In this document: positions 8,274-58,004 of the stretch, piece after piece
Numbering within the stretch: the first letter of the stretch is position 1
How the letters are laid out: the number at the start of each line of letters is the position of its first letter
Source: an uncultured Muribaculaceae bacterium
GTDB lineage: Bacteria; Pseudomonadota; Alphaproteobacteria; Rs-D84
Length of the DNA stretch: 64,000 nucleotides
Direction of reading: 5' to 3'
Assembly (NCBI GenBank): GCA_964619545.1
Contig: CAZUED010000003.1
Span: forward strand, 163-64,162
Made by a program: the position numbers and the translations under genes
Notes under the pieces: model-generated
Databases searched by the model: none
What the model was told of the DNA's origin: nothing
What the model saw: the letters and a program-made list of their open reading frames with translations, nothing else

Positions 8274-8287
8274 AATAGTTCTGAATT

Positions 8288-8316
8288 AAATCGCCGCAAT
8301 CGCGGCGATTTTTTTA
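8288..8316 (+). terminator. rho-independent terminator after skp-like gene
   Basis: tcgccgc-aatc-gcggcga hairpin plus T-run. Confidence 0.7.
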
Positions 8317-8403
8317 ATATAAAAATGTTTTGTAAAAAACTTTGATTTTGTTGATTTTGCCTTTCTACTTTTGCCTTTTGTTTTTTTGTGTTATAATTCA
8401 CCT

Positions 8404-9147: not shown

Positions 9148-9215
9148 AAAAGTTAATAATCACTACATTTCCAATAAACTTGCACTGACAATTTCTGTGT
9201 GGTATTATTTCAATC

Positions 9216-10690: not shown

Positions 10691-11072
10691 AATCGCTGTA
10701 CGTGCCTTTATCGGCAGTTAAATACTTGTATAAAGCATCGGGCGTCCATATAAATGGCGCCCGAATTTTTAATACGTGTTTTGCGAAAGAAACACAGGTT
10801 ATGTTAGAGCATAAGTTATAGGGCATAACGCATAGATATTTTTTACCTTGTGCCTTATGCTCTAAAAACACCCATCCATTTTGTTCCAGGATTTTTAGGT
10901 CGCGGGTTTGCAGCAGTATAAAGTTTATTTTCCCTGAACCGACTTGTATCATAGTGTATCTATGTCTTATGCCTTTAGCCTTATGCTCTAAAACGATTGC
11001 GCAGTGTCGAAATTTTCGGCAAAAAATGCGTGGCATTATTTTCCTGGTATTATTTGTAAATCCGATAAGCAT
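10680..11072 (-). CDS. hypothetical protein with an internal duplicated (A/W)xxLEHKAxG segment
   Basis: 130-aa ORF convergent with fabZ (11-nt overlap); no family recognised; coding status uncertain. Confidence 0.35.
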   Translation of the reverse strand: MLIGFTNNTRKIMPRIFCRKFRHCAIVLEHKAKGIRHRYTMIQVGSGKINFILLQTRDLKILEQNGWVFLEHKAQGKKYLCVMPYNLCSNITCVSFAKHVLKIRAPFIWTPDALYKYLTADKGTYSDFNS

Positions 11073-11205: not shown

Positions 11206-11601
11206 TTAGTTTTCCAGCCATCCTTTGATTTTTGCAGCTTGCGCGATAGTTTGCATTGCATCATTCCACAGGGCAGCTTTGGCATTTTCTGACCATTCAT
11301 GCTGATGTGGAGCGCGCCGCAAGTCTCCAAATTCTTTCAAGACTTCCAGTTGTTTGGGCGTTAGCTTGCCGGCCAGGTAAAGCCGAGTGATAAGAGTTTC
11401 AACATCAATAGCTTCACAAGGATATGGATTTCGTGCCACTGGTCTTCCGATACGCATACGCGCAATGCTGGCAGATGAAAGCGCATCCTTTTGTCGGCAA
11501 GTTAAAAACCAAAACCACATTTGATCGGCGTCTTGAAATTTTCTTTCTGGTGCGTCAAAAGCCGTAGAAGGTATATTTTTTTGTTTTAAGTTGGCGTTCA
11601 T
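11206..11601 (-). CDS. hypothetical protein, possible DNA-binding (LTPKQLEVLKEFG helix)
   Basis: ORF 11206-11616; second ATG at 11601 has a ggagag SD; no confident family assignment. Confidence 0.5.
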   Translation of the reverse strand: MNANLKQKNIPSTAFDAPERKFQDADQMWFWFLTCRQKDALSSASIARMRIGRPVARNPYPCEAIDVETLITRLYLAGKLTPKQLEVLKEFGDLRRAPHQHEWSENAKAALWNDAMQTIAQAAKIKGWLEN

Positions 11602-11739
11602 TTTTTCTCTCTCCATTTTACCCCGTATAATTACTGGGTATGCATTCCTACACTAAAAATAATTGAATTATATCAAATGATACAACTACAAATAGATACT
11701 GCGGTTAGGTTTCTGACATTTTTTGTTTTTTGATAAATT

Positions 11740-11790: not shown

Positions 11791-13938
11791 TTATCTATCT
11801 TGACCGATTTTGGTAGATGTTCCGGATTTCAGGTTGTCATTGGCTATACGAAGTTGTACTTGGTATGCGTTTATACAATCTGTCATACTGGAATTAGTCA
11901 TAGAATCGCCACATTTTTCAAATTGAGATTCAGATAATTTCAATGTTGTTGACATTCCTTTCAGCAAGTCAGAATCAAATTTAAGCTGCTTTCTGGCATC
12001 TGTTTTATTTGATGCGGAACGTATTACGCTCAAGTTGTTATTCAAGCAAGAAATCATATCTGATGTGCTGTAAACCTCATTACAATCACGAGCACCATTT
12101 AATCTTACATTACCTTTAGAAGATTTGCTTGCACTAGTAGAAGAATCATCAGTAGTATCGCCGCCAGCGGCCTGTAATTTTGATACCAGAATGGATTTCT
12201 CCATCTGAGTCTTTAACCGCTTCATAGTAACGTCCAAAAAGTCATACTGACGTTTCATCTGTTGAGTAATAATTGTCGTTTTCAATGCGATTGTATCCGC
12301 CATCATTTGTTTGTCAGCGGCCGAGGTTGGATTTTTTGTACTTCCAATGTTATAAGCATGGGTGCTGCACAAAGCGATGGCTGAATTGATATAATCATTT
12401 CCGCTGTCTTCTTTGCACCCGTTATCAGCTGTGCCAATGGAAAGAATTGCGTCCAGATTGTTGTTTTTGACACACAGATTGCGATCTGGCAAACGTCTTA
12501 GCTGTGCCAAATTACTTATAACAGCTAACTGATCAGAATTTGTTGCACACCATTTTATTGCGTCGGCTGCAGATTCTTCGCCGCGAATTACACTTGGTGC
12601 GTCCTGGGCAATTATTCTGCGCAAAGTTTCTATATCAATCGTCGATTGCTTTTTGCGATTTTTAAATAACACGGAATTATCAATTGCGTCAGATGCACAT
12701 GCAACGCGAATCCCGCCAGAACTGCCCGCATCCATATCCAGCCAGTTTTGTTGAATGTCCTCTTGATTATTTAACATCTTTAACAAAGTGCAATGGGGCT
12801 GTTGAGATTTTACTCGGCGGTTCCCCTGAGCATCATTTTCGTATGCTATAGGCCAGTATCCGCGGCCGGTTTTTGTATCATAATCGCAAGTTATGCTTGT
12901 CTTATCATCAATTTTTTCAGTTTGATTTTGAGAACATGTCTCGCACATATATTGCCCCCAGACATTGCAAGAGCCATTCAGCATCATGTAAATATCTGTT
13001 ATATCAACGCCCAAAGATTGCGCTAAAACCAACGCATCATACAACTCGTCCAAAACTGCATCATACGGATCAAAGAATTTATTTGCCTTATCCTTGAACG
13101 CTTTGACTCGCCGAGGACCCTGGCAATTATTTCCATTAGAATCACAACGCGCATAATCAAAAACATTTTGCATTGTGTTTTTTAAATCTTTCATCGCAAC
13201 ATCAGAATTTTCAAGCTGGGTCAGTATTTGACCACCAATTTGTTCGCGTGCCAAAACATCTGCCGATACACCCGCATTGACTGCATTAGTAATTGTTTTA
13301 TCGGGTGCTGATGCGCTTGCTGCTTGGGCCGCGGCCTGTGCTTGCTGGGCCGCCAGTTGTTTTTGCTCTTCCAATGCTTGCTGAACAGCCGCGGCGGATT
13401 GAGCAGATTGTTCTTGCATCTGTTGCTGCATCTGCATCATCTGCGCTTGCATTTGTTCTATCTGAGTGTTTGATTGCGCCGCTGCTGCATTTGCAGCCTG
13501 CGTTGTTGCAGCATTTTGCGCCTCGGTTGCTTTTGCAATAGCGGCACTTACCATCTGTGCCGCCAATGTTTGGATTAAATCGTCACCATATTGCTCGCAC
13601 GAAGGATTACTTTTCACGCAACCTTTCACAATCGGAAGCGCCAATTCCATGGTTGTGCAGCCCGCGCACTTTGGCTGGGCGCAACGCAAAATAAGTGAAT
13701 TACAATTTCCAAAATCTGCAACCGGCCTTTGTTGCCCCAGTGGATTAGGGTTTATCGCGGCATTCCACTGATTGTTGTTCAATGCGCCGGCACTGCCGGT
13801 AAATACAGTTCTGTTACCTGAAATTCCGCCAGAATTTGCAAAAGAAGGCCCTGGTCCGCCGATAGGACTGTCGCCATAGGCAGTCCCCAGTGCAAAGCAG
13901 GCGGTACAAACAGATAAAAATCTGATTAAAATCTTCAT
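11791..13938 (-). CDS. secreted cysteine-rich coiled-coil protein P3 (Q/A-rich helix, many Cys pairs)
   Basis: ORF 11791-13998; ATG at 13938 gives MKILIRFLSVCTACFALGTAYG/DSP signal peptide with an agagaga SD; Q/A-rich stretch AQNAATTQAANAAAAQSNTQIEQMQAQMMQMQQQMQEQ; co-directional with and 67 nt after virB10. Confidence 0.8.
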   Translation of the reverse strand: MKILIRFLSVCTACFALGTAYGDSPIGGPGPSFANSGGISGNRTVFTGSAGALNNNQWNAAINPNPLGQQRPVADFGNCNSLILRCAQPKCAGCTTMELALPIVKGCVKSNPSCEQYGDDLIQTLAAQMVSAAIAKATEAQNAATTQAANAAAAQSNTQIEQMQAQMMQMQQQMQEQSAQSAAAVQQALEEQKQLAAQQAQAAAQAASASAPDKTITNAVNAGVSADVLAREQIGGQILTQLENSDVAMKDLKNTMQNVFDYARCDSNGNNCQGPRRVKAFKDKANKFFDPYDAVLDELYDALVLAQSLGVDITDIYMMLNGSCNVWGQYMCETCSQNQTEKIDDKTSITCDYDTKTGRGYWPIAYENDAQGNRRVKSQQPHCTLLKMLNNQEDIQQNWLDMDAGSSGGIRVACASDAIDNSVLFKNRKKQSTIDIETLRRIIAQDAPSVIRGEESAADAIKWCATNSDQLAVISNLAQLRRLPDRNLCVKNNNLDAILSIGTADNGCKEDSGNDYINSAIALCSTHAYNIGSTKNPTSAADKQMMADTIALKTTIITQQMKRQYDFLDVTMKRLKTQMEKSILVSKLQAAGGDTTDDSSTSASKSSKGNVRLNGARDCNEVYSTSDMISCLNNNLSVIRSASNKTDARKQLKFDSDLLKGMSTTLKLSESQFEKCGDSMTNSSMTDCINAYQVQLRIANDNLKSGTSTKIGQDR

Positions 13939-14005
13939 ATTCTCTCTTGAAGCAAGTTTATCATAAAATGCGAGGAAATGCAAGCCTCCCTTTAACAAGT
14001 GGAAG

Positions 14006-16300
14006 CTAAATTATTGGGGGAAAGCAATCACCGCCAGCTGCTGGACAGCAGTTGAATCCTTGGCTACCCATGTCTGTATAAACCTCGCCCGTGCAACAGC
14101 CGTTTAAGTCTGGCGATGTACCATCTTCGCAGGTCAGTGCCGTCGTGGTGGTGGTTGCGGGTGGTGTTTCTTTGGCAAATGGATTTTTTATTGTACCGTC
14201 CGCATTGTATTGCAGGCCCAAAACTTGCTCGTTATATTCTTTTGTTCCCTTAGTTAATTGCTGGCCATTGGTTCCGACAATACCGGTTTGCTGCTGGTTA
14301 TTCCAAATAGCCTGCTGTTGGGCATTATTTATCGCTTGATACTGAATTGCTTTACAATATGCAACAACGGTACGATAGTCATAGCCAGCCTCGGAAATAG
14401 TTTGTGCTGTTACACCCGCACTCAGCTGTCCATTAGTGCCGCAGTATTTCTGTATATCAAATCCGCGAACTTGTCCAACCCATGATGCATCATCATAATT
14501 TGGTATGGCTTCGGACGCTTTATGAGAAACATATTGCGAAGGAGTCAAATTGCAATTTTCAAGCCCATTCACCTTGTCGCAGAAGTTCACAATTAAATCC
14601 TTTGGCGAATAAACCGTTATGCGCGTACCAGCGGCAATAGAAAATGGAGGAACCGTGTTGTCCAGCATATCAACCATTAATTTTTGCGCAACTCTGTTCC
14701 ATGTTGAAATAATTTCATTTTTTGCCAGCTCGGACGAGCGAACTTGACCACTTTGTGTAACCGTATTGTTATCCAGATCAATTTGATTTACGAACTTGTC
14801 TGAAATTGGCGCAATCAAATTAACAGCGGCAGGCACAACTGCCGTTATCATCGGCATTATGAATTGCTCCATATAATCTGTGCTGCCGTGACCTGGAACG
14901 CCAACGCGACCTTGGCTGTCGCCAGCAAAGGGCTCGTCCCCGGCAAAGCTGAATTCAACTCCGTCCGGTCTAACAAAGCGATACCATTTGATTTGCATAC
15001 GACCGATGGCTTTATACGGACCCGGCATTTCACCAGTCAAATAACCCAACATCAATGTTCCGGTCGGAATTATTATAGTGCGTCCGTTATCAGAATAGAC
15101 ATGTCTATCAACTGTTGCCTGAACTGGCAACATGGATTGACGCTCTATCTTTGCATCTGCACGTATTTCATTTACGATTGTCGCAGGAATAGGCTTGTAC
15201 TGGCGCAGAACAAAAGTGCGGTCATAGGGCTCGGTCGATATAAATGCATCGCCCGCAGATGAAGGTACCAGGTTACTTTCTGGTTTATATGCAAATGCTG
15301 GATTTATCTCTGACAAACGTTTTGCACCACCCGCAGCTCTGGGTAATTCTGCCGCTGCTGCATTTACTTGTCTTGCTCGATTTTGTACGCGTGCGTTCGC
15401 CGGATTGGACAATACAGGAACATTCGCGCTTGATGCAATAAATCCGATTCGATCAAAGTCAGAGCCTATTTTTCTGCTGGGATTTTTAAGATCGGTAATA
15501 AATCCGGTATCCAAATTATATTCACCCAGTGGGCTGGTGCAGTCCAAGTCAGAAAAAGGATGAAAAAGATAATGTCCACCTTGGGGACGTATCCATCCGA
15601 TTTGCTTTCCATATGCGTCATAGCCGCCGAATGCAAATTCATAGCAGCGCTCGGTATTTAATGCTGCTGTAGTTACTGGCGCAGGCAAATTTTCTGTTGC
15701 AAATTTTGGCGCAAGGGTTTCGACCGCCTCGGCCACAGGATTAATTTCAGGGGCAGTCAAAACAGGTTCTGGTTCTGGCAATTGCACTGGTTTTTGTGGT
15801 TCTACTTTTTTTGTAGATAAAGCAACAGGAATTTCAGCAGTTTGTGCCATTTTGGCCTCGGCACTGGCGGGGTAATACTCAATAAGTACTTTAATGCCGG
15901 TTGGTTCCAAGTCTGCAGCAGGCGTCCAAGTTAATTCTGCACTGCAAGGAATGCCAAGTGTAATTTCGCCCATATTTGTACAGGTGGTATCTATGCTTAA
16001 TCCATCAATTTTTTGGGATAGTTTTACGCTGGGAATCATTGCGACTGCATTCGAAGAAATTTTAATAGTCTGTGTCTGTTTTTCGCCAACTGGAATGTTT
16101 TGCCATGCGATCTCAGATGGATCCATGGTCAGCTCCAGAACTGGTTTTGATTCGGACTTTGGTTTATCCTTGGAATCGCGACCCATCAGAATAACCAGCA
16201 AAACAACGACTACCAAAAAAGCAGCGAACATCACGATCCACAGCACATGCCGTGGCATGGACTTTTTTACATCGCTGATAGTGGTTGTTATCATCGCCAA
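14006..16300 (-). CDS. virB10: VirB10/TrbI-family T4SS core protein with a ~190-aa Cys-rich C-terminal extension
   Basis: N-terminal TM (VLWIVMFAAFLVVVVLLVILM), Pro-rich linker (VQLPEPEPVLTAPEINP) and TrbI-type domain (LPVQATVDRHVYSDNGRTIIIPTGTLMLGY...GDSQGRVGVPGH...PPFSIAAGTRITVYSPKDL); TTG start with aggag SD. Confidence 0.85.
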   Translation of the reverse strand: MAMITTTISDVKKSMPRHVLWIVMFAAFLVVVVLLVILMGRDSKDKPKSESKPVLELTMDPSEIAWQNIPVGEKQTQTIKISSNAVAMIPSVKLSQKIDGLSIDTTCTNMGEITLGIPCSAELTWTPAADLEPTGIKVLIEYYPASAEAKMAQTAEIPVALSTKKVEPQKPVQLPEPEPVLTAPEINPVAEAVETLAPKFATENLPAPVTTAALNTERCYEFAFGGYDAYGKQIGWIRPQGGHYLFHPFSDLDCTSPLGEYNLDTGFITDLKNPSRKIGSDFDRIGFIASSANVPVLSNPANARVQNRARQVNAAAAELPRAAGGAKRLSEINPAFAYKPESNLVPSSAGDAFISTEPYDRTFVLRQYKPIPATIVNEIRADAKIERQSMLPVQATVDRHVYSDNGRTIIIPTGTLMLGYLTGEMPGPYKAIGRMQIKWYRFVRPDGVEFSFAGDEPFAGDSQGRVGVPGHGSTDYMEQFIMPMITAVVPAAVNLIAPISDKFVNQIDLDNNTVTQSGQVRSSELAKNEIISTWNRVAQKLMVDMLDNTVPPFSIAAGTRITVYSPKDLIVNFCDKVNGLENCNLTPSQYVSHKASEAIPNYDDASWVGQVRGFDIQKYCGTNGQLSAGVTAQTISEAGYDYRTVVAYCKAIQYQAINNAQQQAIWNNQQQTGIVGTNGQQLTKGTKEYNEQVLGLQYNADGTIKNPFAKETPPATTTTTALTCEDGTSPDLNGCCTGEVYTDMGSQGFNCCPAAGGDCFPPII

Positions 16301-16321: not shown

Positions 16322-17797
16322 TTATTGAACTCTTACTACATTGCAAGCGGTCCCTTGGAACTTTGTCATTTTATCACAAAGCTTTTGTGCGCTTTCAATG
16401 TCCGACATGGGCCCAATACGCAGGCGATAAAGCCGCGCGGTTGCAGCGCCCGTACCCAGATCTCCAACTCCAGACTCGTCAACTGCGAAATAAACCATAT
16501 TACGATAAGGATTCAGCAGTCCTTGTCCATCATCACCACTGAATTTCGCCAGCAGCTTTGTCCAATAATCATTCAGTGCTTTGACAGAAGTATCGGATTT
16601 CAGCTCAACAGCGACACCTGCTTGATTAGAGGTTATAATTGGAATGTCGCTTTGCGGCAGGAACGAGCCCGCAGTATTGCGAACACTTGGCAGCATATTA
16701 ACGCCAGTCGCACCAGTTGATGCGCCATTTGTCGGCATTACCATCGGCGGTTGAAATCCATTAACCTGTTGGTCAGTGATTGGCTGCAACATTGCACCAG
16801 AATCAACCGGCATATTTCCATAACCAACATTTTGCAAGGATTGTGATGATTGCATGCTTTGCATAACGTTAGATTCAGCCAGTGCCATGACGCTGGAAGT
16901 GTCAGCAATCAAGAAGGGTTTTGCGCGACGCTTGATACAAACAATTCGCTGACCACTGCGCAATACCATATCCCCAACTGCTTCTACAATCAACAGGCGT
17001 CCGTTTTCACCATCAGTACGAAAACCGACTGGCGATTCACCACCTTCGACCAAGATAGAAACAACTGGTCTTTGAGTCATTGCGATAACCTTGTCGCCAA
17101 AATCAATATAGGTAAAGATTCTGTCGCGCCATACGCGTTCAGGCGCAATTACAAAGTCATCAGGATTCGGGACAAAAATGTCTAAATCAAAGCGGAACTC
17201 TGACGGATCAATTTTCATTGTTTTTATCCAGCCGTAATCTTCGCCGTCAACGCCCAAGGTAGAAGTTGAATTTTTCTTTGGGAAAATAGAGTTCATACCA
17301 GAAGTTTGACCAGCAGAAGAGCTGGTTGCATTTGGTATGCTAGAACGCCCATCCAGAACAACATCAACCTGGGAATAAGAAATTTCGCTGGAATTAGCAG
17401 GTTCGGAACGCAGATAGAATAAATATTTATTTCCTGATTTGCCAGTAATAATCAAATTTGTGTCGCTGCCCTGATTTGTTGCAACCGGTGTCATATAAAT
17501 TGTTCTGCCACCTTTTTGCGGATCCATTTGGAACAAACCTTCGTTACCAATGACGCCATCTTCGATAATTTCGCCTTCGGGCAAATTTATCATGGTTACC
17601 ATTCCATTACGCAAACGAATCGGAAGAACTGCGCCTGGCGCCCATGTCAGTTGGGCAAAGCCAGGTTTAGAACTGCCTGTGGCCATATTTGCCTCTGGGT
17701 TATCCCACGCATCCTGGACACCATAATCTTCGGCACTTGCCCCGCCAATACAAAAGGCAAAAATCAAAGGGCAAAGAGCAAATAATTTTATATTCAT
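16322..17797 (-). CDS. virB9: VirB9/TrbG/CagX-family T4SS core protein fused to a C-terminal SPOR-like domain
   Basis: signal peptide; VirB9 N-domain (VLPIRLRNGMVTMINLPEGEIIEDGVIGNEGLFQM...TNLIITGKSGNKYLFYLRS) and C-domain (ERVWRDRIFTYIDFGDK...LVLRSGQRIVCIKRR); SPOR-like tail (YRLRIGPMSDIESAQKLCDKM...CNVVRV). Confidence 0.85.
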   Translation of the reverse strand: MNIKLFALCPLIFAFCIGGASAEDYGVQDAWDNPEANMATGSSKPGFAQLTWAPGAVLPIRLRNGMVTMINLPEGEIIEDGVIGNEGLFQMDPQKGGRTIYMTPVATNQGSDTNLIITGKSGNKYLFYLRSEPANSSEISYSQVDVVLDGRSSIPNATSSSAGQTSGMNSIFPKKNSTSTLGVDGEDYGWIKTMKIDPSEFRFDLDIFVPNPDDFVIAPERVWRDRIFTYIDFGDKVIAMTQRPVVSILVEGGESPVGFRTDGENGRLLIVEAVGDMVLRSGQRIVCIKRRAKPFLIADTSSVMALAESNVMQSMQSSQSLQNVGYGNMPVDSGAMLQPITDQQVNGFQPPMVMPTNGASTGATGVNMLPSVRNTAGSFLPQSDIPIITSNQAGVAVELKSDTSVKALNDYWTKLLAKFSGDDGQGLLNPYRNMVYFAVDESGVGDLGTGAATARLYRLRIGPMSDIESAQKLCDKMTKFQGTACNVVRVQ

Positions 17798-17876: not shown

Positions 17877-18530
17877 CTATTGCATAAAATCGAGCGGATC
17901 ACTTCCCCCTGATTCCACCCGGTATTCCGAGACTTGCAGCCCCAGCGGATTTTCCTGTCTGTTGCCCCATTTCAATTCTGGCGTGTAGGTCAATCCTATT
18001 ACAATAGTAAAATCTTTTGGCGGGGTATGTCCAGCGCTTTCTGATGTGCAAAACCATCTGAATTTTACAGCGAATTTATCACTTCCGCGTGGCTCAATTG
18101 CGGGCGATTGAAACTCTACAGGGCACGAAAACTGAACGTTCGGAGAATCCTGCATGAAAGCAGACCATAACTGAGTTGTTGCAAATCTGGCATAAACCTC
18201 TCTAGATGACCAGATATAAACTGGGCCGTCTGGGCTGCGCCACTTGTACCGCATGGTATTTACATTGGGTGTTATTTCGTTGCGCGCGCGAATATATTCC
18301 TTGATGAAGCTTTCCTTGTAATCGATCATAGTTTTGTTATTTACTGGCAGTTGTTGAATTTCGATTATTTGACCCTCGACACGGCGCGCATTCAGCAAGA
18401 AAACCTGGGTCCTATTCAATGGGAACATGTTAGAGACTGCGAAAATCATGGCCAAAGCAGTTGCAATTGCTGCGGCCAGCACGAAAGACATCATGCGCGC
18501 GGTAAAAGCATTGGGTGTGACAACTGCCAT
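17877..18530 (-). CDS. virB8: VirB8-family T4SS inner-membrane protein
   Basis: short N-tail, one TM (MMSFVLAAAIATALAMIFAV), periplasmic domain with FIKEYIRARNEI and terminal NPLGLQVSEYRV typical of the VirB8 fold. Confidence 0.75.
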   Translation of the reverse strand: MAVVTPNAFTARMMSFVLAAAIATALAMIFAVSNMFPLNRTQVFLLNARRVEGQIIEIQQLPVNNKTMIDYKESFIKEYIRARNEITPNVNTMRYKWRSPDGPVYIWSSREVYARFATTQLWSAFMQDSPNVQFSCPVEFQSPAIEPRGSDKFAVKFRWFCTSESAGHTPPKDFTIVIGLTYTPELKWGNRQENPLGLQVSEYRVESGGSDPLDFMQ

Positions 18531-42958: not shown

Positions 42959-43057
42959 GAACTTTCCTTACTCCGGCAATTTTATATTGTCAAATGGCAA
43001 AAAACAAGTTCTTTTAATCCTTGAAAAGCAAACTATAAATTGCTAGATTGCACAGCG

Positions 43058-45364
43058 ATGAAAAAACCATTATTTGTTATTCTGGGTATATTATCCTTTA
43101 TACCTGTATCTCACGCTGAAATAATTTCGCGGGTGGATGTCGTCGGCAATCGCCGAATGGACGCAGAATCCGTGCGATTACTTGCCGATGTCAAGACTGG
43201 TCAGAACTTGACCACCGAGGGCGTAAATCAGGCTGTAAAGCGTCTGCAGCAGTCTGGCTATTTTTCCAGTGTTCGTGCGCAAATAGATAATGGAGTTCTT
43301 AAAATAAATGTATCGGAATCACCAACTATAGACAAAGTAACAATCGAGGGTAATGACGATATTTCAACAGATGATTTACGAAAAGAACTGCGATTGAAAG
43401 AGCGTGGCACATTCGATGAATCGGTAATTGGCGCAGATGTTCAACGGATTTTGATGGTCTATCAACGTAAGGGATTTTTCGGAACACGTGTAAATCCACA
43501 AAAAATAGAGCAGGCTGATGGCCGCGTAAATGTTGTCTATGAAATTACCGAGGGGCATCCGACTTATGTGAAAGAAATTGATTTTAATGGGAATAAAAAG
43601 TTTTCATCAAGAACACTAAGGGGTGAGTTGCTATCGCGTGAGCATGCTTGGTGGCGCTTTATGTCACAATTTGATGTGTATGACGAAGATCGGATTCAAT
43701 ACGATGCCCAGTTGTTGCGGCAGTTTTACATGCGTAATGGATTTGCCGATGTTCAAGTTAAAATAGCAAGGGGGGCATTTACACCAGATCGTCAGTATTA
43801 TTCTGTTGTTTTCCAAGTAGAAGAGGGTGCGCGTTACAAGGTTGGAACACTGAAAATAGAAAATCCGTTCAAAGATGTTGATAACGAAGATTTGTATGAT
43901 GCATTGAAAATTGGCAAAGGTGACATTTATAATGTTGATCAGGTCGAGGCAACTATCGCTGCATTACGTGGTGTTGTTGCGGGCAGTGGATACTCTTTCA
44001 TAAACGTTGATGTTGTGCCAGAAAAAGATGATTTTGCGCGGACAATTTCTATGACTTTCAAGATTCAGAAAACGAATCGAATTTATTTGGACAGCATAAA
44101 CATACTGGGAAATGTCCGAACATTTGACAGCGTCATAGATCAACAGCTGGGTATTCGTGCAGGCGACCCGTTTTCATTACAGGAAATAGAGGCTGGTCGC
44201 CAAAGAATGATGCGTTCTCGTTATTATAAAGACGTCCAGATGATTCCATCACGCGTTGCAGATGCAAACTTGATGAATTTGGATGTTCAGATTGAAGAAC
44301 AGCCGACCGGTGAATTATCCGGCGGAGTTGGTTGGTCCAGCATCAATGGCTTTATGGTTGATGCAGGAATTACTGAAACTAACTTTATGGGTCGTGGTCA
44401 GATAGTTCAGTTAAAGGGAAGTCTTGCGCAATATACAAAACAAGCCACTTTTAGCTTTACCGAGCCATATCTATTTGGGCGTGAACTTTCCGCCGGATTT
44501 GATGTAAATTACACGGTTTATAATTATGGTAAATTGGGCAGCTATGGATACGATCGGGACAGCATCAGTGTAGCTGGAAGACTGGGGTGGAAACTGACAG
44601 ATCACTGGACCCAGGGATTGCGTTTGTCTGCAATGTATGATCAGAACTATGATTTGCATGCAACCAATGGTTGGCAACAAGCAAATCTGTATACTTTGGG
44701 GACAAATTTCAAGTATCAAAATTTGGATACGGATTTTACGCAAAATACTCATACTGGTGTGGTTGCAAATTTGGGAGTTGCTTATACTGGATTTGGTATC
44801 AGTACAGAACCATTTATGCGATATAACGGCGACATTACTGGTCTGTTGAATTTCTTTGATAACAGGTGGCAGTTAAAATCAAGTTTGGAATTTGGATATG
44901 TTCAACCACTGGATGGCGATTATATCAGTCGCGTGTATCGTTATTTCTTGGGCGGTGAATCTTTACGTGGTTTCCAAATTGCCGGGATGGGTTCCAGAAA
45001 TTGGGCTTATCAGAATTATGCGCTGGGTGGATTATGGAAGGCAAATGGCAGTACCCAATTAAATTTCCCGGTATTTATTCCTGATGAATACCAGGTTAAG
45101 GGTTTTGTCTTTGCGGACTATGGTATGGTTGGCAAGCCACCAAAAGATGAGTATAAATACCGTCCAACAATAGGGTATTCCTGTCCAGCATCAAACCCAG
45201 GATGTGATAACTTTATCGATCAGGATTTACGCACTAGCGTTGGTGTTGGCGTGTATTGGAATACACCGATGGGGCCGATGAATTTTTCATGGGGTTGGCC
45301 GCTGAAGCTGAATGAATACGACCGAGAACAAAGATTTTTGCTATCATTTGAAACTCAGTTTTAA
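43058..45364 (+). CDS. bamA: outer membrane protein assembly factor BamA
   Basis: signal peptide from the ATG at 43058, POTRA repeats, Omp85 barrel ending ...FETQF. Confidence 0.93.
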   Translation: MKKPLFVILGILSFIPVSHAEIISRVDVVGNRRMDAESVRLLADVKTGQNLTTEGVNQAVKRLQQSGYFSSVRAQIDNGVLKINVSESPTIDKVTIEGNDDISTDDLRKELRLKERGTFDESVIGADVQRILMVYQRKGFFGTRVNPQKIEQADGRVNVVYEITEGHPTYVKEIDFNGNKKFSSRTLRGELLSREHAWWRFMSQFDVYDEDRIQYDAQLLRQFYMRNGFADVQVKIARGAFTPDRQYYSVVFQVEEGARYKVGTLKIENPFKDVDNEDLYDALKIGKGDIYNVDQVEATIAALRGVVAGSGYSFINVDVVPEKDDFARTISMTFKIQKTNRIYLDSINILGNVRTFDSVIDQQLGIRAGDPFSLQEIEAGRQRMMRSRYYKDVQMIPSRVADANLMNLDVQIEEQPTGELSGGVGWSSINGFMVDAGITETNFMGRGQIVQLKGSLAQYTKQATFSFTEPYLFGRELSAGFDVNYTVYNYGKLGSYGYDRDSISVAGRLGWKLTDHWTQGLRLSAMYDQNYDLHATNGWQQANLYTLGTNFKYQNLDTDFTQNTHTGVVANLGVAYTGFGISTEPFMRYNGDITGLLNFFDNRWQLKSSLEFGYVQPLDGDYISRVYRYFLGGESLRGFQIAGMGSRNWAYQNYALGGLWKANGSTQLNFPVFIPDEYQVKGFVFADYGMVGKPPKDEYKYRPTIGYSCPASNPGCDNFIDQDLRTSVGVGVYWNTPMGPMNFSWGWPLKLNEYDREQRFLLSFETQF

Positions 45365-45423
45365 GCTTGACTATCCGCGTTAAAATTCTTTATAATTTTT
45401 GATGAAAAGATAAAGGTGGGAAG

Positions 45424-45570
45424 ATGAAAAAAATTCTTTTGGGTTTGTTGGTTGTTTTCGCATTGGCTGGATGCGGGCAAGTTTATGATCGTGAACCAGT
45501 TGGTGTCGGATTTGACAATAATGAATTAAAATTATCTCCTTGCGCATGCATGCAGGTCTATCGCGCATAA
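45424..45570 (+). CDS. small lipoprotein (48 aa, below the ORF-track cutoff); VirB7-like candidate by position
   Basis: MKKILLGLLVVFALAGCGQVYDREPVGVGFDNNELKLSPCACMQVYRA: lipobox LAGC, SD aaaggtggg, extra Cys pair, 12 nt upstream of a VirB8-fold gene. Confidence 0.6.
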   Translation: MKKILLGLLVVFALAGCGQVYDREPVGVGFDNNELKLSPCACMQVYRA

Positions 45571-45582
45571 AGGCGCGAACTG

Positions 45583-46275
45583 GTGAGCGTCATGGATTTT
45601 CCGGCAGATTATGATACAAAGATGTTTCCGGAAACACGCTACCTTGGGATGGCGCGGGCTTTTGCGATTTGGTCCGCGATTTTGTTTTTATTAATTGCTG
45701 GACTTTCTTGGGCATTGGTTTGGACGATGCGTGCCAGCAGGGTAGAACCTGTTTTGGTTTCAATTTCTGCCGATGGTGCAACTTGGACGGCAGTATTGGA
45801 CGGAACAGGTCGCTTAAATTATTCTGTATCGCGCGCAATGCAAGAGGCAACAGTCGGAAAATTCACAAAACTTTGGTTCAGTATTTCGCGTGATGCAAAA
45901 GAAAATGAATCTAACTGGTGTCAATGCGAACAAACAAAATGTTGGGATGACGATGCGGCTGCGCCGCAGTGCAAAGTTTGTTGCGCTTCGGGCACCAGTT
46001 TATTTTCTAATTTCTTACAAGTTGTGAATGGTGACTTTCGTGAGCGGGCCGCGGCCGGCGAAGAATGGTCGATTGTTTCTGATTCGATTCGTGCAACACC
46101 TGTGGGTGAAATCTCTGACAATGGTGGATTATGGCGTGTTACTGCCAGTGTGAAAATGGGCGCGGGTCGGACGCAAAAGATAGAGGCGTTTGCACGTATC
46201 ATCAAAGCATCCGAAGGCTATCCATCAACAATGGGTTATTATGTCGCAGATTTTCATGCATATCCCGGGGAATAA
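45583..46275 (+). CDS. VirB8-fold bitopic membrane protein with a Cys-rich insert
   Basis: N-tail, TM (FAIWSAILFLLIAGLSWALVW), RVEPVLVSISADG..., terminal EGYPSTMGYYVADFHAY resembling the VirB8 NPLGxxV motif; insert WCQCEQTKCWDDDAAAPQCKVCC. Confidence 0.6.
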   Translation: MSVMDFPADYDTKMFPETRYLGMARAFAIWSAILFLLIAGLSWALVWTMRASRVEPVLVSISADGATWTAVLDGTGRLNYSVSRAMQEATVGKFTKLWFSISRDAKENESNWCQCEQTKCWDDDAAAPQCKVCCASGTSLFSNFLQVVNGDFRERAAAGEEWSIVSDSIRATPVGEISDNGGLWRVTASVKMGAGRTQKIEAFARIIKASEGYPSTMGYYVADFHAYPGE

Positions 46276-46283
46276 AAAATTAA

Positions 46284-46934
46284 ATGAAAACACTAGTATC
46301 ATTTTTTTTCGGAATTATTTTGATGGCTTTGGTCTTGGCTATTGCACTAACGGGCGGCAAGTCATTTGATGCCAGTCGAAATTTTTCTATAAATTCTGTA
46401 ATTTTTCAGCCTGCGGATTTATCGCGAGATCGGATTGAAAAGCCAATACCACTGGATGTTTTATCAGACGAGTTTGTGCGCGACAGCCTGATAAAAAAAT
46501 TTGTGAACGAGTATTTTTACATAGCGCCAGATAGCTTTGATATGGCGCGTCGTAGAAGAACAGACAGCACACTTGCAAGAATGTCCGATCCCGCAGTATT
46601 TGATCAATGGAATGAAAAGTTTGCCGAAGATATGGAAAATCTGGCAGATCAAAATGTAATGCGTCGGGTTATTGTAAATAGCATTAATCTGCCAGCTAAC
46701 AGCGAGTATTTCCAAGTGTCATATGACTTGCTGACATGGGATGTTGCGAACGACATCACTCGTCAGCCATTAATCCAAAAAAACAAATCAATGTCTGTTC
46801 GATTGGATTTCGAAAAAGGGGTTCGGCAACAGCAAACAAACGGCGCACGTTTTGATGTAAAAAAATATTTGGTTGATGGTGGTGATCCTGCTACAATTTT
46901 CAGATTCCGAGTGTTGGAAGTAGTTGTGAAATAA
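46284..46934 (+). CDS. VirB8-fold bitopic membrane protein (second paralogue)
   Basis: N-terminal TM, SLIKKFVNEYFYI (compare FIKEYIRARNEI in 17877-18530), YFQVSYDLLTWDV, terminal DPATIFRFRVLEVVV. Confidence 0.55.
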   Translation: MKTLVSFFFGIILMALVLAIALTGGKSFDASRNFSINSVIFQPADLSRDRIEKPIPLDVLSDEFVRDSLIKKFVNEYFYIAPDSFDMARRRRTDSTLARMSDPAVFDQWNEKFAEDMENLADQNVMRRVIVNSINLPANSEYFQVSYDLLTWDVANDITRQPLIQKNKSMSVRLDFEKGVRQQQTNGARFDVKKYLVDGGDPATIFRFRVLEVVVK

Positions 46935-46944
46935 GGGATAAATA

Positions 46945-47805
46945 ATGATGGTTGAAGTAAAAATACTTTTTAGAAAATTAATTAAATCGCTGGTGATAAT
47001 TGGTGTTGCCTTCATCCTTAATCCCTCATCCTTCATCCTTTCTGCGCAAGCTGCGGAAGAGGCGGATCCATTCATAATAAATGCGGCGCTGGGCGAAGAT
47101 GCGAAATTGCCAGATGCAAAAATTTCCGCACCCGAGCCAGTTCAGTTTGATACAGCGCCATTACCACTTAATGATGGCGCAGGCTTTTATGATGTTTCTG
47201 ACTTTGACATTTCGGGCATATATTTGGGTATGCCTTTCGAGGATGTTCAAACTTTGTTTTTCAAAAGCCATTCTCTTTATACGCCACTGAAAAATAATTC
47301 TATAATTTATACATTGGCAGGTGATTGGCGTATTAATTTGGACTATGAATGTCGCCAGCAAGGTATAGTTGTTCCAGCTGGTTTGGAAAATTGCATTTTG
47401 TCTGCGGCGCGAAAACGCGGATTGTTGTACCCGGCCCAGCTTCGTCTGATACGTGAATCCACTGGTGAAACGATAGACATTTATTTTACTAGCAATGCTA
47501 CAGATAACGTGGTTTGGCGGGTAGTATATAAAAATGATGTAAATGATTTAGAAGGCGCGGCAGAAAAGTTTTCGCGTCAACGGGATAATAAAATTTTGTC
47601 TTTTTGGCAGGATGTTGTCGATAAATACGGCCAGCCAAACAGCGGAAATGATAAATGGGCATCCAGTGATAATTCTTTTGATCCGATGCTGACGGCATAC
47701 TATGGCATGCTGGATTTGACCGACCAAGGCTTGATGGCGTCTGATGCAGCAAAGAATGTATCCGATGCGCGTGAAAATTTCCGGGCAAAACCTTATGCGT
47801 TCTAA
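46945..47805 (+). CDS. secreted hypothetical protein (286 aa)
   Basis: long signal peptide ending SAQA/AEEADP; same operon-like spacing as the two VirB8-fold genes; no family recognised. Confidence 0.6.
   Translation: MMVEVKILFRKLIKSLVIIGVAFILNPSSFILSAQAAEEADPFIINAALGEDAKLPDAKISAPEPVQFDTAPLPLNDGAGFYDVSDFDISGIYLGMPFEDVQTLFFKSHSLYTPLKNNSIIYTLAGDWRINLDYECRQQGIVVPAGLENCILSAARKRGLLYPAQLRLIRESTGETIDIYFTSNATDNVVWRVVYKNDVNDLEGAAEKFSRQRDNKILSFWQDVVDKYGQPNSGNDKWASSDNSFDPMLTAYYGMLDLTDQGLMASDAAKNVSDARENFRAKPYAF
47009..47043 (+). repeat. five tandem degenerate heptamers inside the signal-peptide coding region
   Basis: ccttcat ccttaat ccctcat ccttcat cctttct; the same heptamer family occurs at 57161-57181. 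Confidence 0.6.
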
Positions 47806-48145
47806 AAACACTTATCGCGCGGGACTTTTTGCTGAGTTTTTGGCACGAGTTTATTTGCGTATTCATGGATTCAGTATTGTAAAATCCAGATACATAACGG
47901 GTCAACATACCAAACGTGCAGAAATTGATATAATTGCAATACGCGGAAATTTAATTGCGTTTATAGAGGTTAAAAATCGACCAAATGTCCGCACTGCATT
48001 TGATGCGATCGGTCATACCCAGGCGTTAAGGTTGCGACGTGCCGCCGAAACATGGATTGCAAAAAATCGTTGGCATGGTGATGCCAGATTTGATGTAATA
48101 GTTGTAACCCGTTTACATATTCGGTGGTTTAAAAACGCTTTGTAA
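47795..48145 (+). CDS. yraN: YraN-family (UPF0102) endonuclease-like protein
   Basis: GLFAEFLARVYLRIHGFSIV...EIDIIAIRGNLIAFIEVKNR; ATG at 47795 overlaps the upstream stop. Confidence 0.8.
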   Translation: MRSKNTYRAGLFAEFLARVYLRIHGFSIVKSRYITGQHTKRAEIDIIAIRGNLIAFIEVKNRPNVRTAFDAIGHTQALRLRRAAETWIAKNRWHGDARFDVIVVTRLHIRWFKNAL

Positions 48146-48228
48146 AATAAAATTTACATAATGGGTTTTTTAGTTTATAATTGCCCTGTTCTGCCAAGGC
48201 AGTTCTAAACCAATAAAGGAGAAAATAA

Positions 48229-48378
48229 ATGAAAAAAGCATTATTGTTGGGATTTGCAGTTTTAACATTGGCTGCTTGCACAGGTTCTTATAAATCTGGA
48301 AATTGCGAATATGATTTCTTGCTGCACAAAGACATCTCGATTTCCAAAGTAATTGGCAACGCAACAGGCGGCTGCTAA
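48229..48378 (+). CDS. small lipoprotein (49 aa, below the ORF-track cutoff)
   Basis: MKKALLLGFAVLTLAACTGSYKSGNCEYDF...ATGGC; lipobox LAAC, SD aaaggag, terminator follows. Confidence 0.55.
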   Translation: MKKALLLGFAVLTLAACTGSYKSGNCEYDFLLHKDISISKVIGNATGGC

Positions 48379-48392
48379 AAATTAGAATAAAT

Positions 48393-48420
48393 AAAACGCG
48401 GCGGTTGCCGCGTTTTATTT
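48393..48420 (+). terminator. rho-independent terminator
   Basis: aacgcggc-ggtt-gccgcgtt plus T-run. Confidence 0.7.
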
Positions 48421-48819: not shown

Positions 48820-49656
48820 TTAAATCCTAAACTCGGTTTTTGCCTGGACGGGACGCAAAGTTTGACCAAGTGGACGAACCGGGGCTGCGTTCAGGTCCAG
48901 CGCCCCAGCAATCGCGTCCAGACCGTCATCGTGCCCCGAATCGCCCATCGGCGTCCAACCCAGCATTTCAGACAGCAATGGAGTCGCCTGAATTCTTTGG
49001 TGGGCCCAAATACGACCCGTCGTCAGTAGTGGCTCTACCGCGTTCAGAATCCGAGATTCCTTGCGCGTGTGATTTATGATTTTTTGGATAACAACAGATT
49101 GGTCGTGTTTTTTTGCGACTTCGCGCAAAATCTCGGGCAAGGCGTTTCCCAGCCCATTTACTTCTATCCCGATTATATGCGCGCCATGTATTTTCATAAA
49201 TCCCAAAACTTTCTCGCACTGAGTCGCCAGTGGATGCAAATCATTGTCATCCACAATCAAGTACCGAACATCATGAATAAATGCGCGCCGATTTTTATCG
49301 TCTCGGTAAAGCAAGACACATACACTGGAATCGGCCCCTTTACGCCCGCCTGATGGATCCCAATAGCACGATACGCCCGTTATCAAAAATTCTTTATCAA
49401 TTCCCAGTTTCGCTGTGCGAGCATCAAACTCTCCGTCATAAAAATAAAGCGCGCCTGGATCCAGCCGCGCTTTATCTTCCGAAATATATTCCAGCATCAT
49501 TTGACTGGAAAAATGACGTGGTCCGACCGTTTCCCTTAATTCTTCTATTTTTTCCAGTGGAAAAATATCTGGCCATGCAGGTATGCCGCCAGAATCAATT
49601 ATCGGTAGGCGGAATAATTGGTATCCGCGTAAAAATGGCAAGGTCTGTTCATTCAT
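48820..49656 (-). CDS. phage terminase large subunit, C-terminal nuclease half (fragment of a split gene)
   Basis: WPDIFPLEKIEELRETVGPRHFSSQMMLEY, then RNaseH-like motifs CYWDPSGG, IIGIEVNGLGN, HDDGLDAIAGAL; no SD, and it starts right after the dnaB terminator. Confidence 0.7.
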   Translation of the reverse strand: MNEQTLPFLRGYQLFRLPIIDSGGIPAWPDIFPLEKIEELRETVGPRHFSSQMMLEYISEDKARLDPGALYFYDGEFDARTAKLGIDKEFLITGVSCYWDPSGGRKGADSSVCVLLYRDDKNRRAFIHDVRYLIVDDNDLHPLATQCEKVLGFMKIHGAHIIGIEVNGLGNALPEILREVAKKHDQSVVIQKIINHTRKESRILNAVEPLLTTGRIWAHQRIQATPLLSEMLGWTPMGDSGHDDGLDAIAGALDLNAAPVRPLGQTLRPVQAKTEFRI

Positions 49657-54590: not shown

Positions 54591-56315
54591 TTAGATTAAA
54601 TACCAGCCTTCTACTGATATGCCCAGTATGCTTACAGGTAATGGTTCGCTACCCGATATAGTCCAAAGAGGACAGGTAGTATCGTCAATTGTTCCCAATG
54701 AACCTACAGAAACATCTCCGCAGTATCCAGGCGAGTCTACACCAAGTGCATCATTTGGAAGTTGTGCACGAACTGCATTTATAAATAAAGATTTGGTATT
54801 CAGGCATCGTGCGGAAATTTTATGCACTCGAATTTTTTTCGGAGCTCGTCCACTGGCGAATAAAGGCATCGCAGCAGCCGTATGTGAAAATCCGAATTGA
54901 CCAGAATCAAGAGTTTCTGCTGCTGAAAATTTTTCTATGAATACGCCTGATTCGCGCGCGACTATTACAAATGTTTCACCATTCAGCACAGCGACAGATT
55001 TGAATGATCCCAGTGTTTTGTAGATGCCCCAGGCAGAAATTTCCAATGCCGAGTTTTTATTCAGTACTGCCATGGAACCATCTGTCATCACCACAAACAA
55101 CTGGCGTGTTTTATCATTATATGCCAGATCCACGGGATGCTTCATCAAGTGACCGGAAATCGCGCACAAGTTTGGTGCATTGTAGTTTTCACCTAACTCA
55201 TCCATAATCATTTCTCTGATTTCGTTGCCACCTTTGGAAACAAAAATAGTGCTGCGGTCTATCTTTTGTGGCTGCAGATAAATCGAAGAAATACTTCCTG
55301 CATTGGTATGTTGTCTGATGTCCATGGATGATGGAGTTAATGGTTTTGCGCTGATTGCCCATTCGCCTGCTGTGGTTAAAATTTGTAAATTATCGCTGGA
55401 TACAACCGTGCAAATTTGTTGGCGTGCAGATGAAAGCAGTGTCAGAAAAATGGCTTGGTCATCCAATCCTGTTTCAGCATTAAAGTTTTGATGATCACCA
55501 ACGCATGACATCCAAACCCCACATGGCCACGCGCGCGAACCCCCAAATACCAATCGGTCCTGATGAAAAGTGATGCTGCGTGGCCATCCGCGGCGGACAC
55601 CAAATGCGGCTTCGCGCCAATCAGAAATTGCCGCACTGGGCAGCGAGTAAGTTCCATTAGTGTATGCAACGATAGTGGTAGAATTTACATACTCGTAAAT
55701 GACCCATTGCTTACCCATCAAGTAAAGTCTGCCATTGAGATTTTCAGGTGTCCAAAAAGCGGCACTGGCAGTAAAAGTAGCATAGTTATTCCCATTCGCA
55801 TTACTTGATACAGAAATTTTTATACCAGCTGCATCGTCAAATTTCATAAATGGCATATTTCGTGACATATCATCGTTTGTTGAAAAATCAAATGTGGACA
55901 GATAAAACGCGCCACCTGTTTTTTTCAGAACTCGTGGCTGAAAATCCTGATGCACGAAAATCATGGTATCAAAACGTTGCGCATATTGCATGTTACACAA
56001 TGCATCCGCGCCCCAAGGCGAGATCAAGGCCTGGACCATATTCTGACCATCATAAATTTTCATCTGACCATCAGAAATAGCCAGCATATAATTTTCTGAA
56101 TCGGAAATAGAAAAAGGAATCAAAATTGCACCATTTTTTGTCGCAGCAATCCGAATTGTTCCATTCCGCCGTGAAATAGCCCCCGATGCCAAGACATCCA
56201 TATTTTCCATACGCGACAAGCCGCGGGATGAAACATCCAAATCACCACGCGCAAAAAATTCTGGCGATACTTCCCCCAATGCGAAAGAGTTCTGATTGTG
56301 AATAAATTTTCCCAT
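54591..56315 (-). CDS. T7 gp12-like tail tubular protein B (nozzle)
   Basis: N-terminus HNQNSFALGEVSPEFFARGDLDVSSRGLSRMENMDVLASGAISRRNG parallels T7 gp12 (NLKGGISQQPDILRYPDQGSRQVNGW...GLQKRP); C-terminus PVSILGISVEGWYLI parallels NIIGCGWEGNYL; beta-rich. Confidence 0.6.
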   Translation of the reverse strand: MGKFIHNQNSFALGEVSPEFFARGDLDVSSRGLSRMENMDVLASGAISRRNGTIRIAATKNGAILIPFSISDSENYMLAISDGQMKIYDGQNMVQALISPWGADALCNMQYAQRFDTMIFVHQDFQPRVLKKTGGAFYLSTFDFSTNDDMSRNMPFMKFDDAAGIKISVSSNANGNNYATFTASAAFWTPENLNGRLYLMGKQWVIYEYVNSTTIVAYTNGTYSLPSAAISDWREAAFGVRRGWPRSITFHQDRLVFGGSRAWPCGVWMSCVGDHQNFNAETGLDDQAIFLTLLSSARQQICTVVSSDNLQILTTAGEWAISAKPLTPSSMDIRQHTNAGSISSIYLQPQKIDRSTIFVSKGGNEIREMIMDELGENYNAPNLCAISGHLMKHPVDLAYNDKTRQLFVVMTDGSMAVLNKNSALEISAWGIYKTLGSFKSVAVLNGETFVIVARESGVFIEKFSAAETLDSGQFGFSHTAAAMPLFASGRAPKKIRVHKISARCLNTKSLFINAVRAQLPNDALGVDSPGYCGDVSVGSLGTIDDTTCPLWTISGSEPLPVSILGISVEGWYLI

Positions 56316-57188: not shown

Positions 57189-58004
57189 TTATTCGGCGCA
57201 ATTGATTTTGACGATCCCGTCCTGATCAATCAGCACGCTGCCCTGGGACATGCTGTTGCTGATAAAGTGCGCAGCGCGTTCGCCATTCCAAAAGATGTCA
57301 GATTTGACTTCTTGGCCACATGCATGACCGATAGCGGACGAGTGATACATAAAGCACTTACGCATATTGGTACCGGTTGGCAGGCCGTTATGCATAATCC
57401 AATTGATGCCCAACCACTTACGCAGTTCGAATCCACCAATCAAAGGTGTTTCGTTGCCGACGTATTCAGCCGAAACGAATTCATCCATAGACAAAAGCTC
57501 ATTCCACTGATGAACACCGACGACGCAGAATCTGCGACCATCGTCAGGAACGTCTTTAGAGTTCAATGCTTCGACCGCGGACAAAATAATTTCTTTGGTC
57601 AAAGCGGCAGTTCCATCTCCGACAGCGGTTGTTGCATTGGCCATAGATGTTATAATCAGCTCGTCAGTCTTGCGACCCAATGCATATGCACCTGCGCTTG
57701 CGACAACCCGACGTTCATCAATGTTGATTTTTAATTCATCCAAAGCATCAACCCAATCGCCCGCATAATAGTCCTGCAATACGCATTCAACAGGCTCGTG
57801 GTCCAAGTTCATGACAGGAACTAATCCGTGGCGAGATTTGGTAGTGGCAGTACCACGACCAACTTTTTGGAAAGTTGTACTGCTGCCTATAACGCCGGAT
57901 TTACTGCGTATTGTGTTGCGAAGCTTTGTCCCCATTTGTTGATAAGCAAGATGAACATCGGCCTCGAATTGTTTTACGAATATCTGGTCTATTGATTCAG
58001 ACAT
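57189..58004 (-). CDS. T7-like (HK97-fold) major capsid protein, 271 aa
   Basis: FVKQFEADVHLAYQQMGTKLRNTIRSKSGVIGSSTTFQKVGRGTA...LDELKINIDERRVVASAGAYALGRKTDELII parallels the T7 gp10 N-terminal pattern; strong SD aaggag. Confidence 0.7.
   Translation of the reverse strand: MSESIDQIFVKQFEADVHLAYQQMGTKLRNTIRSKSGVIGSSTTFQKVGRGTATTKSRHGLVPVMNLDHEPVECVLQDYYAGDWVDALDELKINIDERRVVASAGAYALGRKTDELIITSMANATTAVGDGTAALTKEIILSAVEALNSKDVPDDGRRFCVVGVHQWNELLSMDEFVSAEYVGNETPLIGGFELRKWLGINWIMHNGLPTGTNMRKCFMYHSSAIGHACGQEVKSDIFWNGERAAHFISNSMSQGSVLIDQDGIVKINCAE

Follow-up and report, generated by a model that had tools for sequence, protein, structure and literature searches.

Among described type IV secretion systems (T4SSs), the rvh system of rickettsiae offers a close precedent for the locus reported here: two VirB8 genes flank rvhB7 in the order rvhB9-I, rvhB8-II / rvhB7, rvhB8-I, rvhB9-II..., and the degenerate NPXG motif of RvhB8-II alters the dimer interface (PMC4676284). 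This system has hitherto been treated as the unique case of coexpressed divergent VirB8 paralogues (PMC4676284). In type IVB systems DotI and DotJ form a heterocomplex (PMC4454188), and in the R388 system each of six arch units holds a VirB8 trimer in three non-equivalent positions, each inner-membrane protomer having three differently shaped VirB8 tails (PMC9259494). We describe here a 64,000-nucleotide stretch of contig CAZUED010000003.1 (GCA_964619545.1, positions 163 to 64,162, forward strand; hereafter the window) from an uncultured alphaproteobacterium of the Rs-D84 lineage, deposited as Muribaculaceae. Downstream of bamA are four closely packed plus-strand open reading frames (ORFs) encoding a small lipoprotein, two bitopic proteins (paralogues A and B) and a secreted fourth protein. 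Our profile comparisons and structure models indicate that both bitopic proteins are true, very divergent VirB8 homologues, and we favor, with some reserve, the interpretation that the four genes are a satellite of a scattered, vertically inherited T4SS-like envelope machine whose virB8-virB9-virB10 core lies 27 kb away.

Both bitopic proteins are divergent VirB8 homologues

Using hhalign with 90-sequence alignments for paralogue A, paralogue B and a diverse set of canonical VirB8 proteins, we find that A aligns with VirB8 at E=5e-10 (probability 96.6%) and with B at E=5e-8 (probability 95%, 144 columns). The alignment of B with VirB8 (E=4e-19) is partly circular because the VirB8 set was drawn from a search with B, whereas the value for A is free of that circularity. 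Control comparisons with the VirB9 proteins of the same clade gave E values of about 0.05. The comparisons became significant only once the alignments held 90 sequences; with shallow profiles of 18-20 sequences, A against B gave E=0.066, and the two gave E=0.4 (A) and 0.011 (B) against the single window VirB8. Alignment with the clade's own, less diverse VirB8 family is similarly weak (A 0.0086, B 0.0017), and profile searches of the paralogue A, paralogue B and fourth-protein families against PDB sequences returned nothing meaningful.

A HMMER search of 1.84 billion representative proteins with the paralogue B profile found 127 proteins, of which the weakest full-length matches (E=3e-8 to 6e-4) are canonical VirB8 proteins, eight of ten passing the Pfam VirB8 cut-off. 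Two apparent fusions from this exhaustive search (P0240 and P0267) look like chimeric gene calls and provide no Rosetta-stone evidence. The comparison with the VirB8 family model (PF04335) that a first-pass annotation of the sequence had proposed gave a divided answer: 13 of 20 paralogue A orthologues match (best E=6.8e-9), as do 10 of 79 diverse members of the paralogue B family (best E=9.6e-6), but the window copy of A falls below the cut-off (20.3 bits against 23.2, E=5e-4) and that of B has no Pfam match. With the canonical gene identified by Pfam and A and B by the profile comparisons, the window nonetheless holds three VirB8-family genes, as had been suggested.

The structure models point the same way. 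The AlphaFold2 model of paralogue A (mean predicted local distance difference test score, pLDDT, 77) begins with a long N-terminal helix and continues as an alpha+beta domain, and that of paralogue B (pLDDT 80) exceeds 90 across most of the domain. In each, a single transmembrane (TM) helix, preceded in A by a short cytoplasmic tail, leads to a predicted periplasmic NTF2-like domain that is nearest to solved VirB8 structures, in agreement with the fold anticipated at first pass. An analogy with PilN/PilO/PilP, in which a bitopic pair with ferredoxin-like domains accompanies a lipoprotein, is rejected by the predicted fold. The motifs said to be shared with VirB8 are borne out in part: the helices are in register by profile alignment, but the helix motif itself is approximate (FIKEY in VirB8, FVNEY in B and FTKLW in A). 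At the position of the NPXG motif, paralogue A retains only the glycine (STMG; xxMG), and paralogue B has DPA[AT].

Paralogue A contains the Cys-rich stretch WCQCEQTKCWDDDAAAPQCKVCC that had been noticed in the first bitopic protein. Periplasmic cysteines number four in 59 sequences of this family and six in 27, and the subclade to which the window belongs acquired Cys113 and Cys133 jointly; such a paired gain is the pattern expected of disulfides. The cytoplasmic tail of paralogue A is also conserved, as [DN][FY]Pxx[FY][DN]TxxFPxxR.

Organization of the operon and its conservation

The small lipoprotein ORF, with its LAGC lipobox and later SPCAC, and the three ORFs after it are located where the first-pass annotation had placed them. 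The ORF lister begins paralogue A at a GTG (position 45583, 230 aa), but the ATG at 45592 is the likely start, since orthologues begin MDFPADYD and a GGTGAG ribosome-binding site precedes this ATG. The intergenic gaps are 12, 8 and 10 nucleotides, close to the 8-12 originally estimated, the first becoming 21 nucleotides if translation starts at the ATG. Stop and start codons overlap between cluster genes in relatives, and the median gaps over 75 loci are 27, -1 and 8 nucleotides.

A sigma-70-like promoter lies in the spacer between bamA and the lipoprotein gene. Its TTGAC and TATAAT columns are kept in a 10-locus DNA alignment that includes loci away from bamA, and 70 of the 75 species loci have TTGAC-N17-20-TAnAAT 5' of this gene. 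There is no convincing terminator ahead of yraN, the first terminator-like hairpin 3' of the operon being that after the DUF4223 lipoprotein gene (Table 1). By the conserved promoter, the tight gaps and the missing terminator, the four genes probably constitute one operon with its own promoter, a conclusion that we hold jointly with the overall interpretation and with the same reserve. The last part of the fourth gene is overlapped by yraN, whose product is nuclease-like; in 40 of the 75 species loci yraN is immediately 3' of the fourth gene. It may be co-transcribed with the operon, with no obvious functional link.

Database relatives number 18 for paralogue A, 16 for paralogue B and 794 for the fourth protein (E<=1e-3), and the relatives' contigs all carry the same four genes in identical order. 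A species-level scan with the fourth protein as query and one genome per GTDB species yielded 280 loci, the best 80 of which were examined; 75 of these are complete, in that they are not cut by a contig end. The 80 are in metagenome-assembled genomes (MAGs) of animal-gut and termite origin. These carry the name Candidatus Enterousia or the label Alphaproteobacteria or Rickettsiales bacterium, some of the labels evidently reflecting mislabelled bins. Each of the 75 complete loci has all four genes, in one order and on one strand, which answers the question, raised at first pass, of whether they are conserved in relatives.

The association with bamA is frequent and imperfect. In 48 of the 75 loci bamA is on the same strand and no more than 400 nucleotides upstream; in the others it is more distant, inverted or outside the flank. 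Counting any position in the flank, it accompanies the cluster in 68 of the 75. The cluster is intact with bamA distant or absent in loci L008 and L010 and in at least nine GTDB loci. In L010 it sits between the HU and ClpB genes with neither bamA nor yraN close by, and in L008 four opposite-strand genes separate it from bamA and an extra gene is inserted between genes 3 and 4. Because the cluster survives loss of the bamA linkage, the operon is the unit, mostly but not obligatorily beside bamA.

Mean pairwise identity across 64 species is 92% for the mature lipoprotein, 67% for the fourth protein, and 42% and 40% for the bitopic proteins. Ratios of nonsynonymous to synonymous differences (pN/pS) range from 0.09 to 0.5 over the cluster genes, with 0.45-0.50 for the two bitopic genes (10 loci), and synonymous sites are saturated (pS about 0.8). 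On this pattern of order-wide conservation it seems rather probable, to the same degree as the overall interpretation of which it is part, that the cluster has been inherited vertically in Enterousia-like Alphaproteobacteria. A decaying remnant of a lost T4SS, or a small ORF that is no real gene, might be suspected from the strong divergence of the paralogues and the failure of the window copies to reach the Pfam cut-off, but four intact genes at every complete locus, the low pN/pS against saturated synonymous change, and the conserved lipoprotein, promoter and ribosome-binding site in effect refute this and leave it exceedingly improbable.

The lipoprotein and the fourth protein

The prolipoprotein, MKKILLGLLVVFALAGC..., has an LAGC lipobox (Pfam LPAM_1, E=4e-4) with SPCAC further on, and its mature peptide is 32 aa long (CGQVYDREPVGVGFDNNELKLSPCACMQVYRA). 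The family follows the pattern CGQ[VI]YDREPVG[VI]G[YF]Dxx ELKLSPCAC..., which is nearly invariant across species and includes two invariant cysteines as CAC. A conserved ribosome-binding site, AAAGGTGGGAA, precedes the ORF, and in 10 loci the mature part has a mean pN of 0.074 against a pS of 0.80. Presence at 75 of 75 loci, the ribosome-binding site and this strong purifying selection argue that the ORF is a real gene and not a chance ORF, a doubt to which the first-pass annotation had itself drawn attention.

The residue at +2 is glycine in 75 of 75 sequences, which under the E. coli +2 rule for lipoprotein sorting predicts an outer-membrane location. The protein thus has the lipobox and the predicted outer-membrane sorting of the small VirB7 type, and it resembles A. 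tumefaciens VirB7 and pKM101 TraN in its small mature form (VirB7 lipoproteins are about 30-45 residues when mature), in a gene position just 5' of a virB8-type gene, and in having Cys residues that could bond VirB9. It differs in having a CAC pair instead of a single Cys and in being far more conserved than the usual VirB7. Taking position, predicted sorting and Cys pattern together, a VirB7 role is plausible. Matches to LptM, EexN and Cor are all below cut-off, and identity with LptM is rejected: NCBIfam scores it at 22.1 bits, short of the 27.7 cut-off, and Pfam LptM_cons at 14.1 where 27.3 is needed, with the matches confined to residues 1-19, the signal peptide and lipobox.

The fourth protein has a signal peptide ending ...SAQA/AEEADPF, a highly conserved C-terminal domain of ~200 aa, and the C-terminus ...NFRAKPYAF; Cys136 and Cys150 are invariant in 97 of 97 sequences. 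We find no hhalign similarity to the clade's VirB8, VirB9 or VirB10, to paralogues A and B, or to the two ORFs that follow virB10. That it might be a truncated VirB9 resembling RvhB9-II is unsupported (VirB9 hhalign E=0.056).

A canonical virB8-virB9-virB10 trio 27 kb away

The VirB8 homologue recognized at first pass on the other strand is real, and the NPLG motif that it carries is retained across the clade's canonical VirB8 family. It belongs to a virB8-virB9-virB10 trio that adjoins secE-nusG in 28 of 28 long related metagenome loci, with virB10 following virB9 in all 28, and the trio and the four-gene operon share contigs, one of them being Ga0099364_10000018, which is represented by L037 as well as L096. 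VirB9 residues Cys287, Cys474 and Cys485 are present in 59 of 59 homologues; two of these invariant cysteines lie within the C-terminal SPOR domain, and Cys287, at the end of the VirB9 domain, is unpaired. This VirB9 is unusually long, and ends in the peptidoglycan-binding SPOR domain with its invariant Cys pair; VirB10 has a Cys-rich C-terminal tail (...CEDGTSPDLNGCCTGEVYTDMGSQGFNCCPAAGGDC...). Two small ORFs of 136 and 130 aa, neither matching a known family, come after virB10 in most related loci (32 and 30 of 70, respectively) and may be part of the T4SS locus. The gene for a secreted 735-aa protein is directly 3' of virB10 in close relatives only.

The designation of the four genes as a second T4SS-like locus stands as regards the VirB8-family genes and the VirB7 candidate, but not as regards a second machine, there being no other T4SS gene with them. 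The description of an expanded, divergent T4SS-like apparatus likewise stands for its three VirB8-family genes, but with no VirB4, VirB11 or VirD4 ATPase seen in the window or flanks, a functioning T4SS is not established.

Several further observations weigh against assigning the operon to such a machine. The search for VirB4, VirB11, VirD4, VirB6 and pilin genes was negative in the 64-kb window and in ~20-kb flanks of 28 virB9 loci, a sampling that does not cover whole genomes; none of virB8, virB9 and virB10 lies within about 6 kb of the operon in the 75 loci, no T4SS Pfam domain is found among the neighbors of the cluster, and the operon usually sits beside bamA amid housekeeping genes. The lipoprotein has no similarity to the VirB7, TraN or TrbH families of Pfam and NCBIfam, where matches cover the signal peptide and lipobox only, and nothing in Pfam, NCBIfam, PHROG or PDB matches the fourth protein (window copy, with 33 relatives for the family libraries). 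The structure models were built on shallow alignments of 16-17 sequences, and the canonical NPXG dimer-interface motif is absent from both paralogues. As about 10% of VirB8 proteins and RvhB8-II also are without NPXG (PMC4676284), its loss marks divergence and is compatible with VirB8 membership.

The frequent bamA linkage and the missing ATPases suggest the main rival explanation, a T4SS-derived but now independent envelope complex that would have a housekeeping role, for example in linking the two membranes or helping BamA-dependent assembly of outer-membrane proteins, with no part in protein or DNA secretion. The housekeeping surroundings, the absence of any ATPase or channel gene from the window and flanks, the order-wide vertical inheritance, and a very high conservation of the lipoprotein and fourth protein, of the kind expected for core envelope factors, all fit such a complex. 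The operon has its own conserved promoter, however, and outlasts the loss of bamA linkage; the homology is specific to VirB8 beyond the NTF2 fold; virB8-virB9-virB10 is kept in the same genomes; and to our knowledge no VirB8-family protein works outside T4SS or conjugation machines. We regard the independent complex as a possible but distinctly less likely explanation than a satellite of the T4SS-like machine.

Comparison with described systems and a possible mechanism

The locus is like rvh in that rvhB7 is directly 5' of rvhB8-I with a second divergent VirB8 coexpressed (PMC4676284), as the lipoprotein gene here is 5' of A and B, and the degenerate NPXG of A and B resembles that of RvhB8-II (PMC4676284). 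It differs in having three VirB8 genes where rickettsiae have two, and in placing the divergent pair in tandem, in its own operon with a secreted protein and 27 kb from virB9 and virB10, whereas Rickettsia has these genes in one islet with virB9, virB10, virB11 and virD4. The hallmarks of rvh are duplicated VirB4, VirB8 and VirB9, an expanded VirB6, no VirB5, and scattered islets; VirB8 multiplicity and scattering are observed here, and duplicated VirB4 or VirB9 and expanded VirB6 were not seen in the window and flanks, no genome-wide search for VirB4, VirB6 and VirB9-II having been made. In comparison with canonical VirB8 proteins (A. tumefaciens VirB8, R388 TrwG and pKM101 TraE), both paralogues have lost NPXG, A has gained an insert with 4-6 Cys, B is nearly tail-less, and neither gene is inside a T4SS cluster.

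The parallel with DotI and DotJ drawn at first pass is apt in that these are related proteins forming a heterocomplex, but the literature describes DotJ as no more than a partial DotI paralogue (PMC4454188). Unlike the Legionella pair, A and B each have a full periplasmic domain, and the VirB9 and VirB10 that accompany them are type IVA-like; no Dot/Icm genes were seen in the regions examined. It is improbable that the operon belongs to another, separate T4SS whose remaining genes are elsewhere, such as a conjugative one or a type IVB-like one whose subunits resemble DotI and DotJ.

If the four genes are indeed a satellite of the scattered machine, the operon would encode periplasm-facing parts of a chromosomal T4SS-like apparatus common to Enterousia-like Alphaproteobacteria. 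By analogy, the lipoprotein, from its predicted place in the outer membrane, would take the VirB7 role and staple onto the C-terminal domain of VirB9, perhaps by way of a disulfide that links a cysteine of the CAC pair to the unpaired Cys287, in the manner of Agrobacterium, where VirB7 Cys24 is reportedly disulfide-bonded to VirB9 Cys262. Paralogues A and B might join canonical VirB8 in a hetero-oligomeric ring round the channel, as DotI and DotJ associate, with the insert of A stiffened by two or three disulfides and its conserved tail contacting an inner-membrane or cytoplasmic partner. The fourth protein would act in the periplasm as a further partner, with one disulfide.

Since the arch positions and tails of VirB8 in R388 are non-equivalent (PMC9259494), three paralogues could have split the three positions among them. 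We therefore offer, as speculation that we consider rather unlikely to be right in full, that canonical VirB8, A and B make up a heterotrimeric arch, which the lipoprotein and the new periplasmic protein clamp to the outer-membrane core. More boldly, T4SS ATPases may be missing from the lineage altogether, and the whole would then be a T4SS-derived, non-secretory scaffold spanning the envelope.

Other features of the window

The usual bamA-skp-lpxD-fabZ linkage is broken in the window; skp-lpxD-fabZ is 33 kb from bamA and adjoins the T4SS locus at its virB10 end (Table 1), and uppS-cdsA-rseP is divergent from bamA. The gene for a DUF4223 lipoprotein is usually just after yraN and 3' of the operon; its mature product, CTGSYKSGNCEYDFLLHKDISISK[IV]IGNATGGC, hardly varies among the relatives examined. 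Three secreted proteins of 662, 747 and 735 aa are Cys- and S/T/A/Q-rich and match nothing in Pfam or PHROG; a motif like C..Y..CMD.[IF]C......RC.C is clearly common to the first two, which look paralogous.

A set of podovirus-like genes includes a terminase nuclease-domain-only ORF, a tail protein (phrog_376, E=1.6e-82) and a Phage_capsid_2 protein. These genes also are found in relatives L003, L007, L008 and L011, and relatives add a head-tail connector, Bbp19 and a T7-like capsid. They occupy fixed chromosomal positions across the clade among dnaB and housekeeping genes, and could represent either a phage that has become domesticated or an element akin to a gene-transfer agent.

Table 1. 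Positions of the operon, the canonical trio and other features in the window.
Feature	Position	Strand	Remarks
662-aa secreted protein	451-2439	+	
747-aa secreted protein	2461-4704	+	
skp-lpxD-fabZ	7614-10690	+	
130-aa ORF	10680-11072	-	
136-aa ORF	11206-11616	-	
735-aa secreted protein	11791-13998	-	
virB10	14006-16300	-	764 aa; Pfam TrbI E=2.6e-18; Cys-rich C-terminal tail
virB9	16322-17797	-	491 aa; Pfam CagX E=1.6e-21; C-terminal SPOR domain E=5e-4
Canonical virB8	17877-18530	-	217 aa; Pfam VirB8 E=6.6e-14; intact NPLG
bamA	43040-45364	+	POTRA and Omp85 domains; directly 5' of the four-gene cluster
Sigma-70-like promoter, TTGACT-18 nt-TATAAT	45367-45396	+	Spacer between bamA and lipoprotein gene; 11 of 12 positions matched, best in region
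48-aa prolipoprotein gene	45424-45570	+	Lipobox LAGC; VirB7-like candidate
VirB8 paralogue A	45592-46275	+	227 aa from ATG; cytoplasmic tail, one TM helix, predicted periplasmic VirB8-fold domain, Cys-rich insert
VirB8 paralogue B	46284-46934	+	216 aa; one TM helix, predicted periplasmic VirB8-fold domain, hardly any tail, no Cys
Secreted fourth protein	46945-47805	+	286 aa; signal peptide; ~200-aa conserved C-terminal domain
yraN	47744-48145	+	UPF0102
DUF4223 lipoprotein	48229-48378	+	49 aa; promoter-like site 48153-48181; terminator-like hairpin 48389-48420
Podovirus-like gene	48820-49656	-	
Podovirus-like gene	54591-56315	-	
Podovirus-like gene	57189-58004	-	

Implications

A literature search on Enterousia, Rs-D84 and RF32 found nothing linking this clade with secretion systems, type IV secretion included. 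An arrangement comparable to that of rvh, with three paralogues, is found in common uncultured Alphaproteobacteria of guts and termites, the fourth gene being present in at least 280 species-level genomes. The stoichiometry and placement of VirB8, a subunit essential to T4SSs, have been resolved only recently, and lineages in which it is divided among paralogues offer natural experiments on the roles of the VirB8 positions. The lipoprotein and the fourth protein are candidates for new T4SS accessory subunits, and the operon may bear on the origin of the scattered rvh-type architecture.

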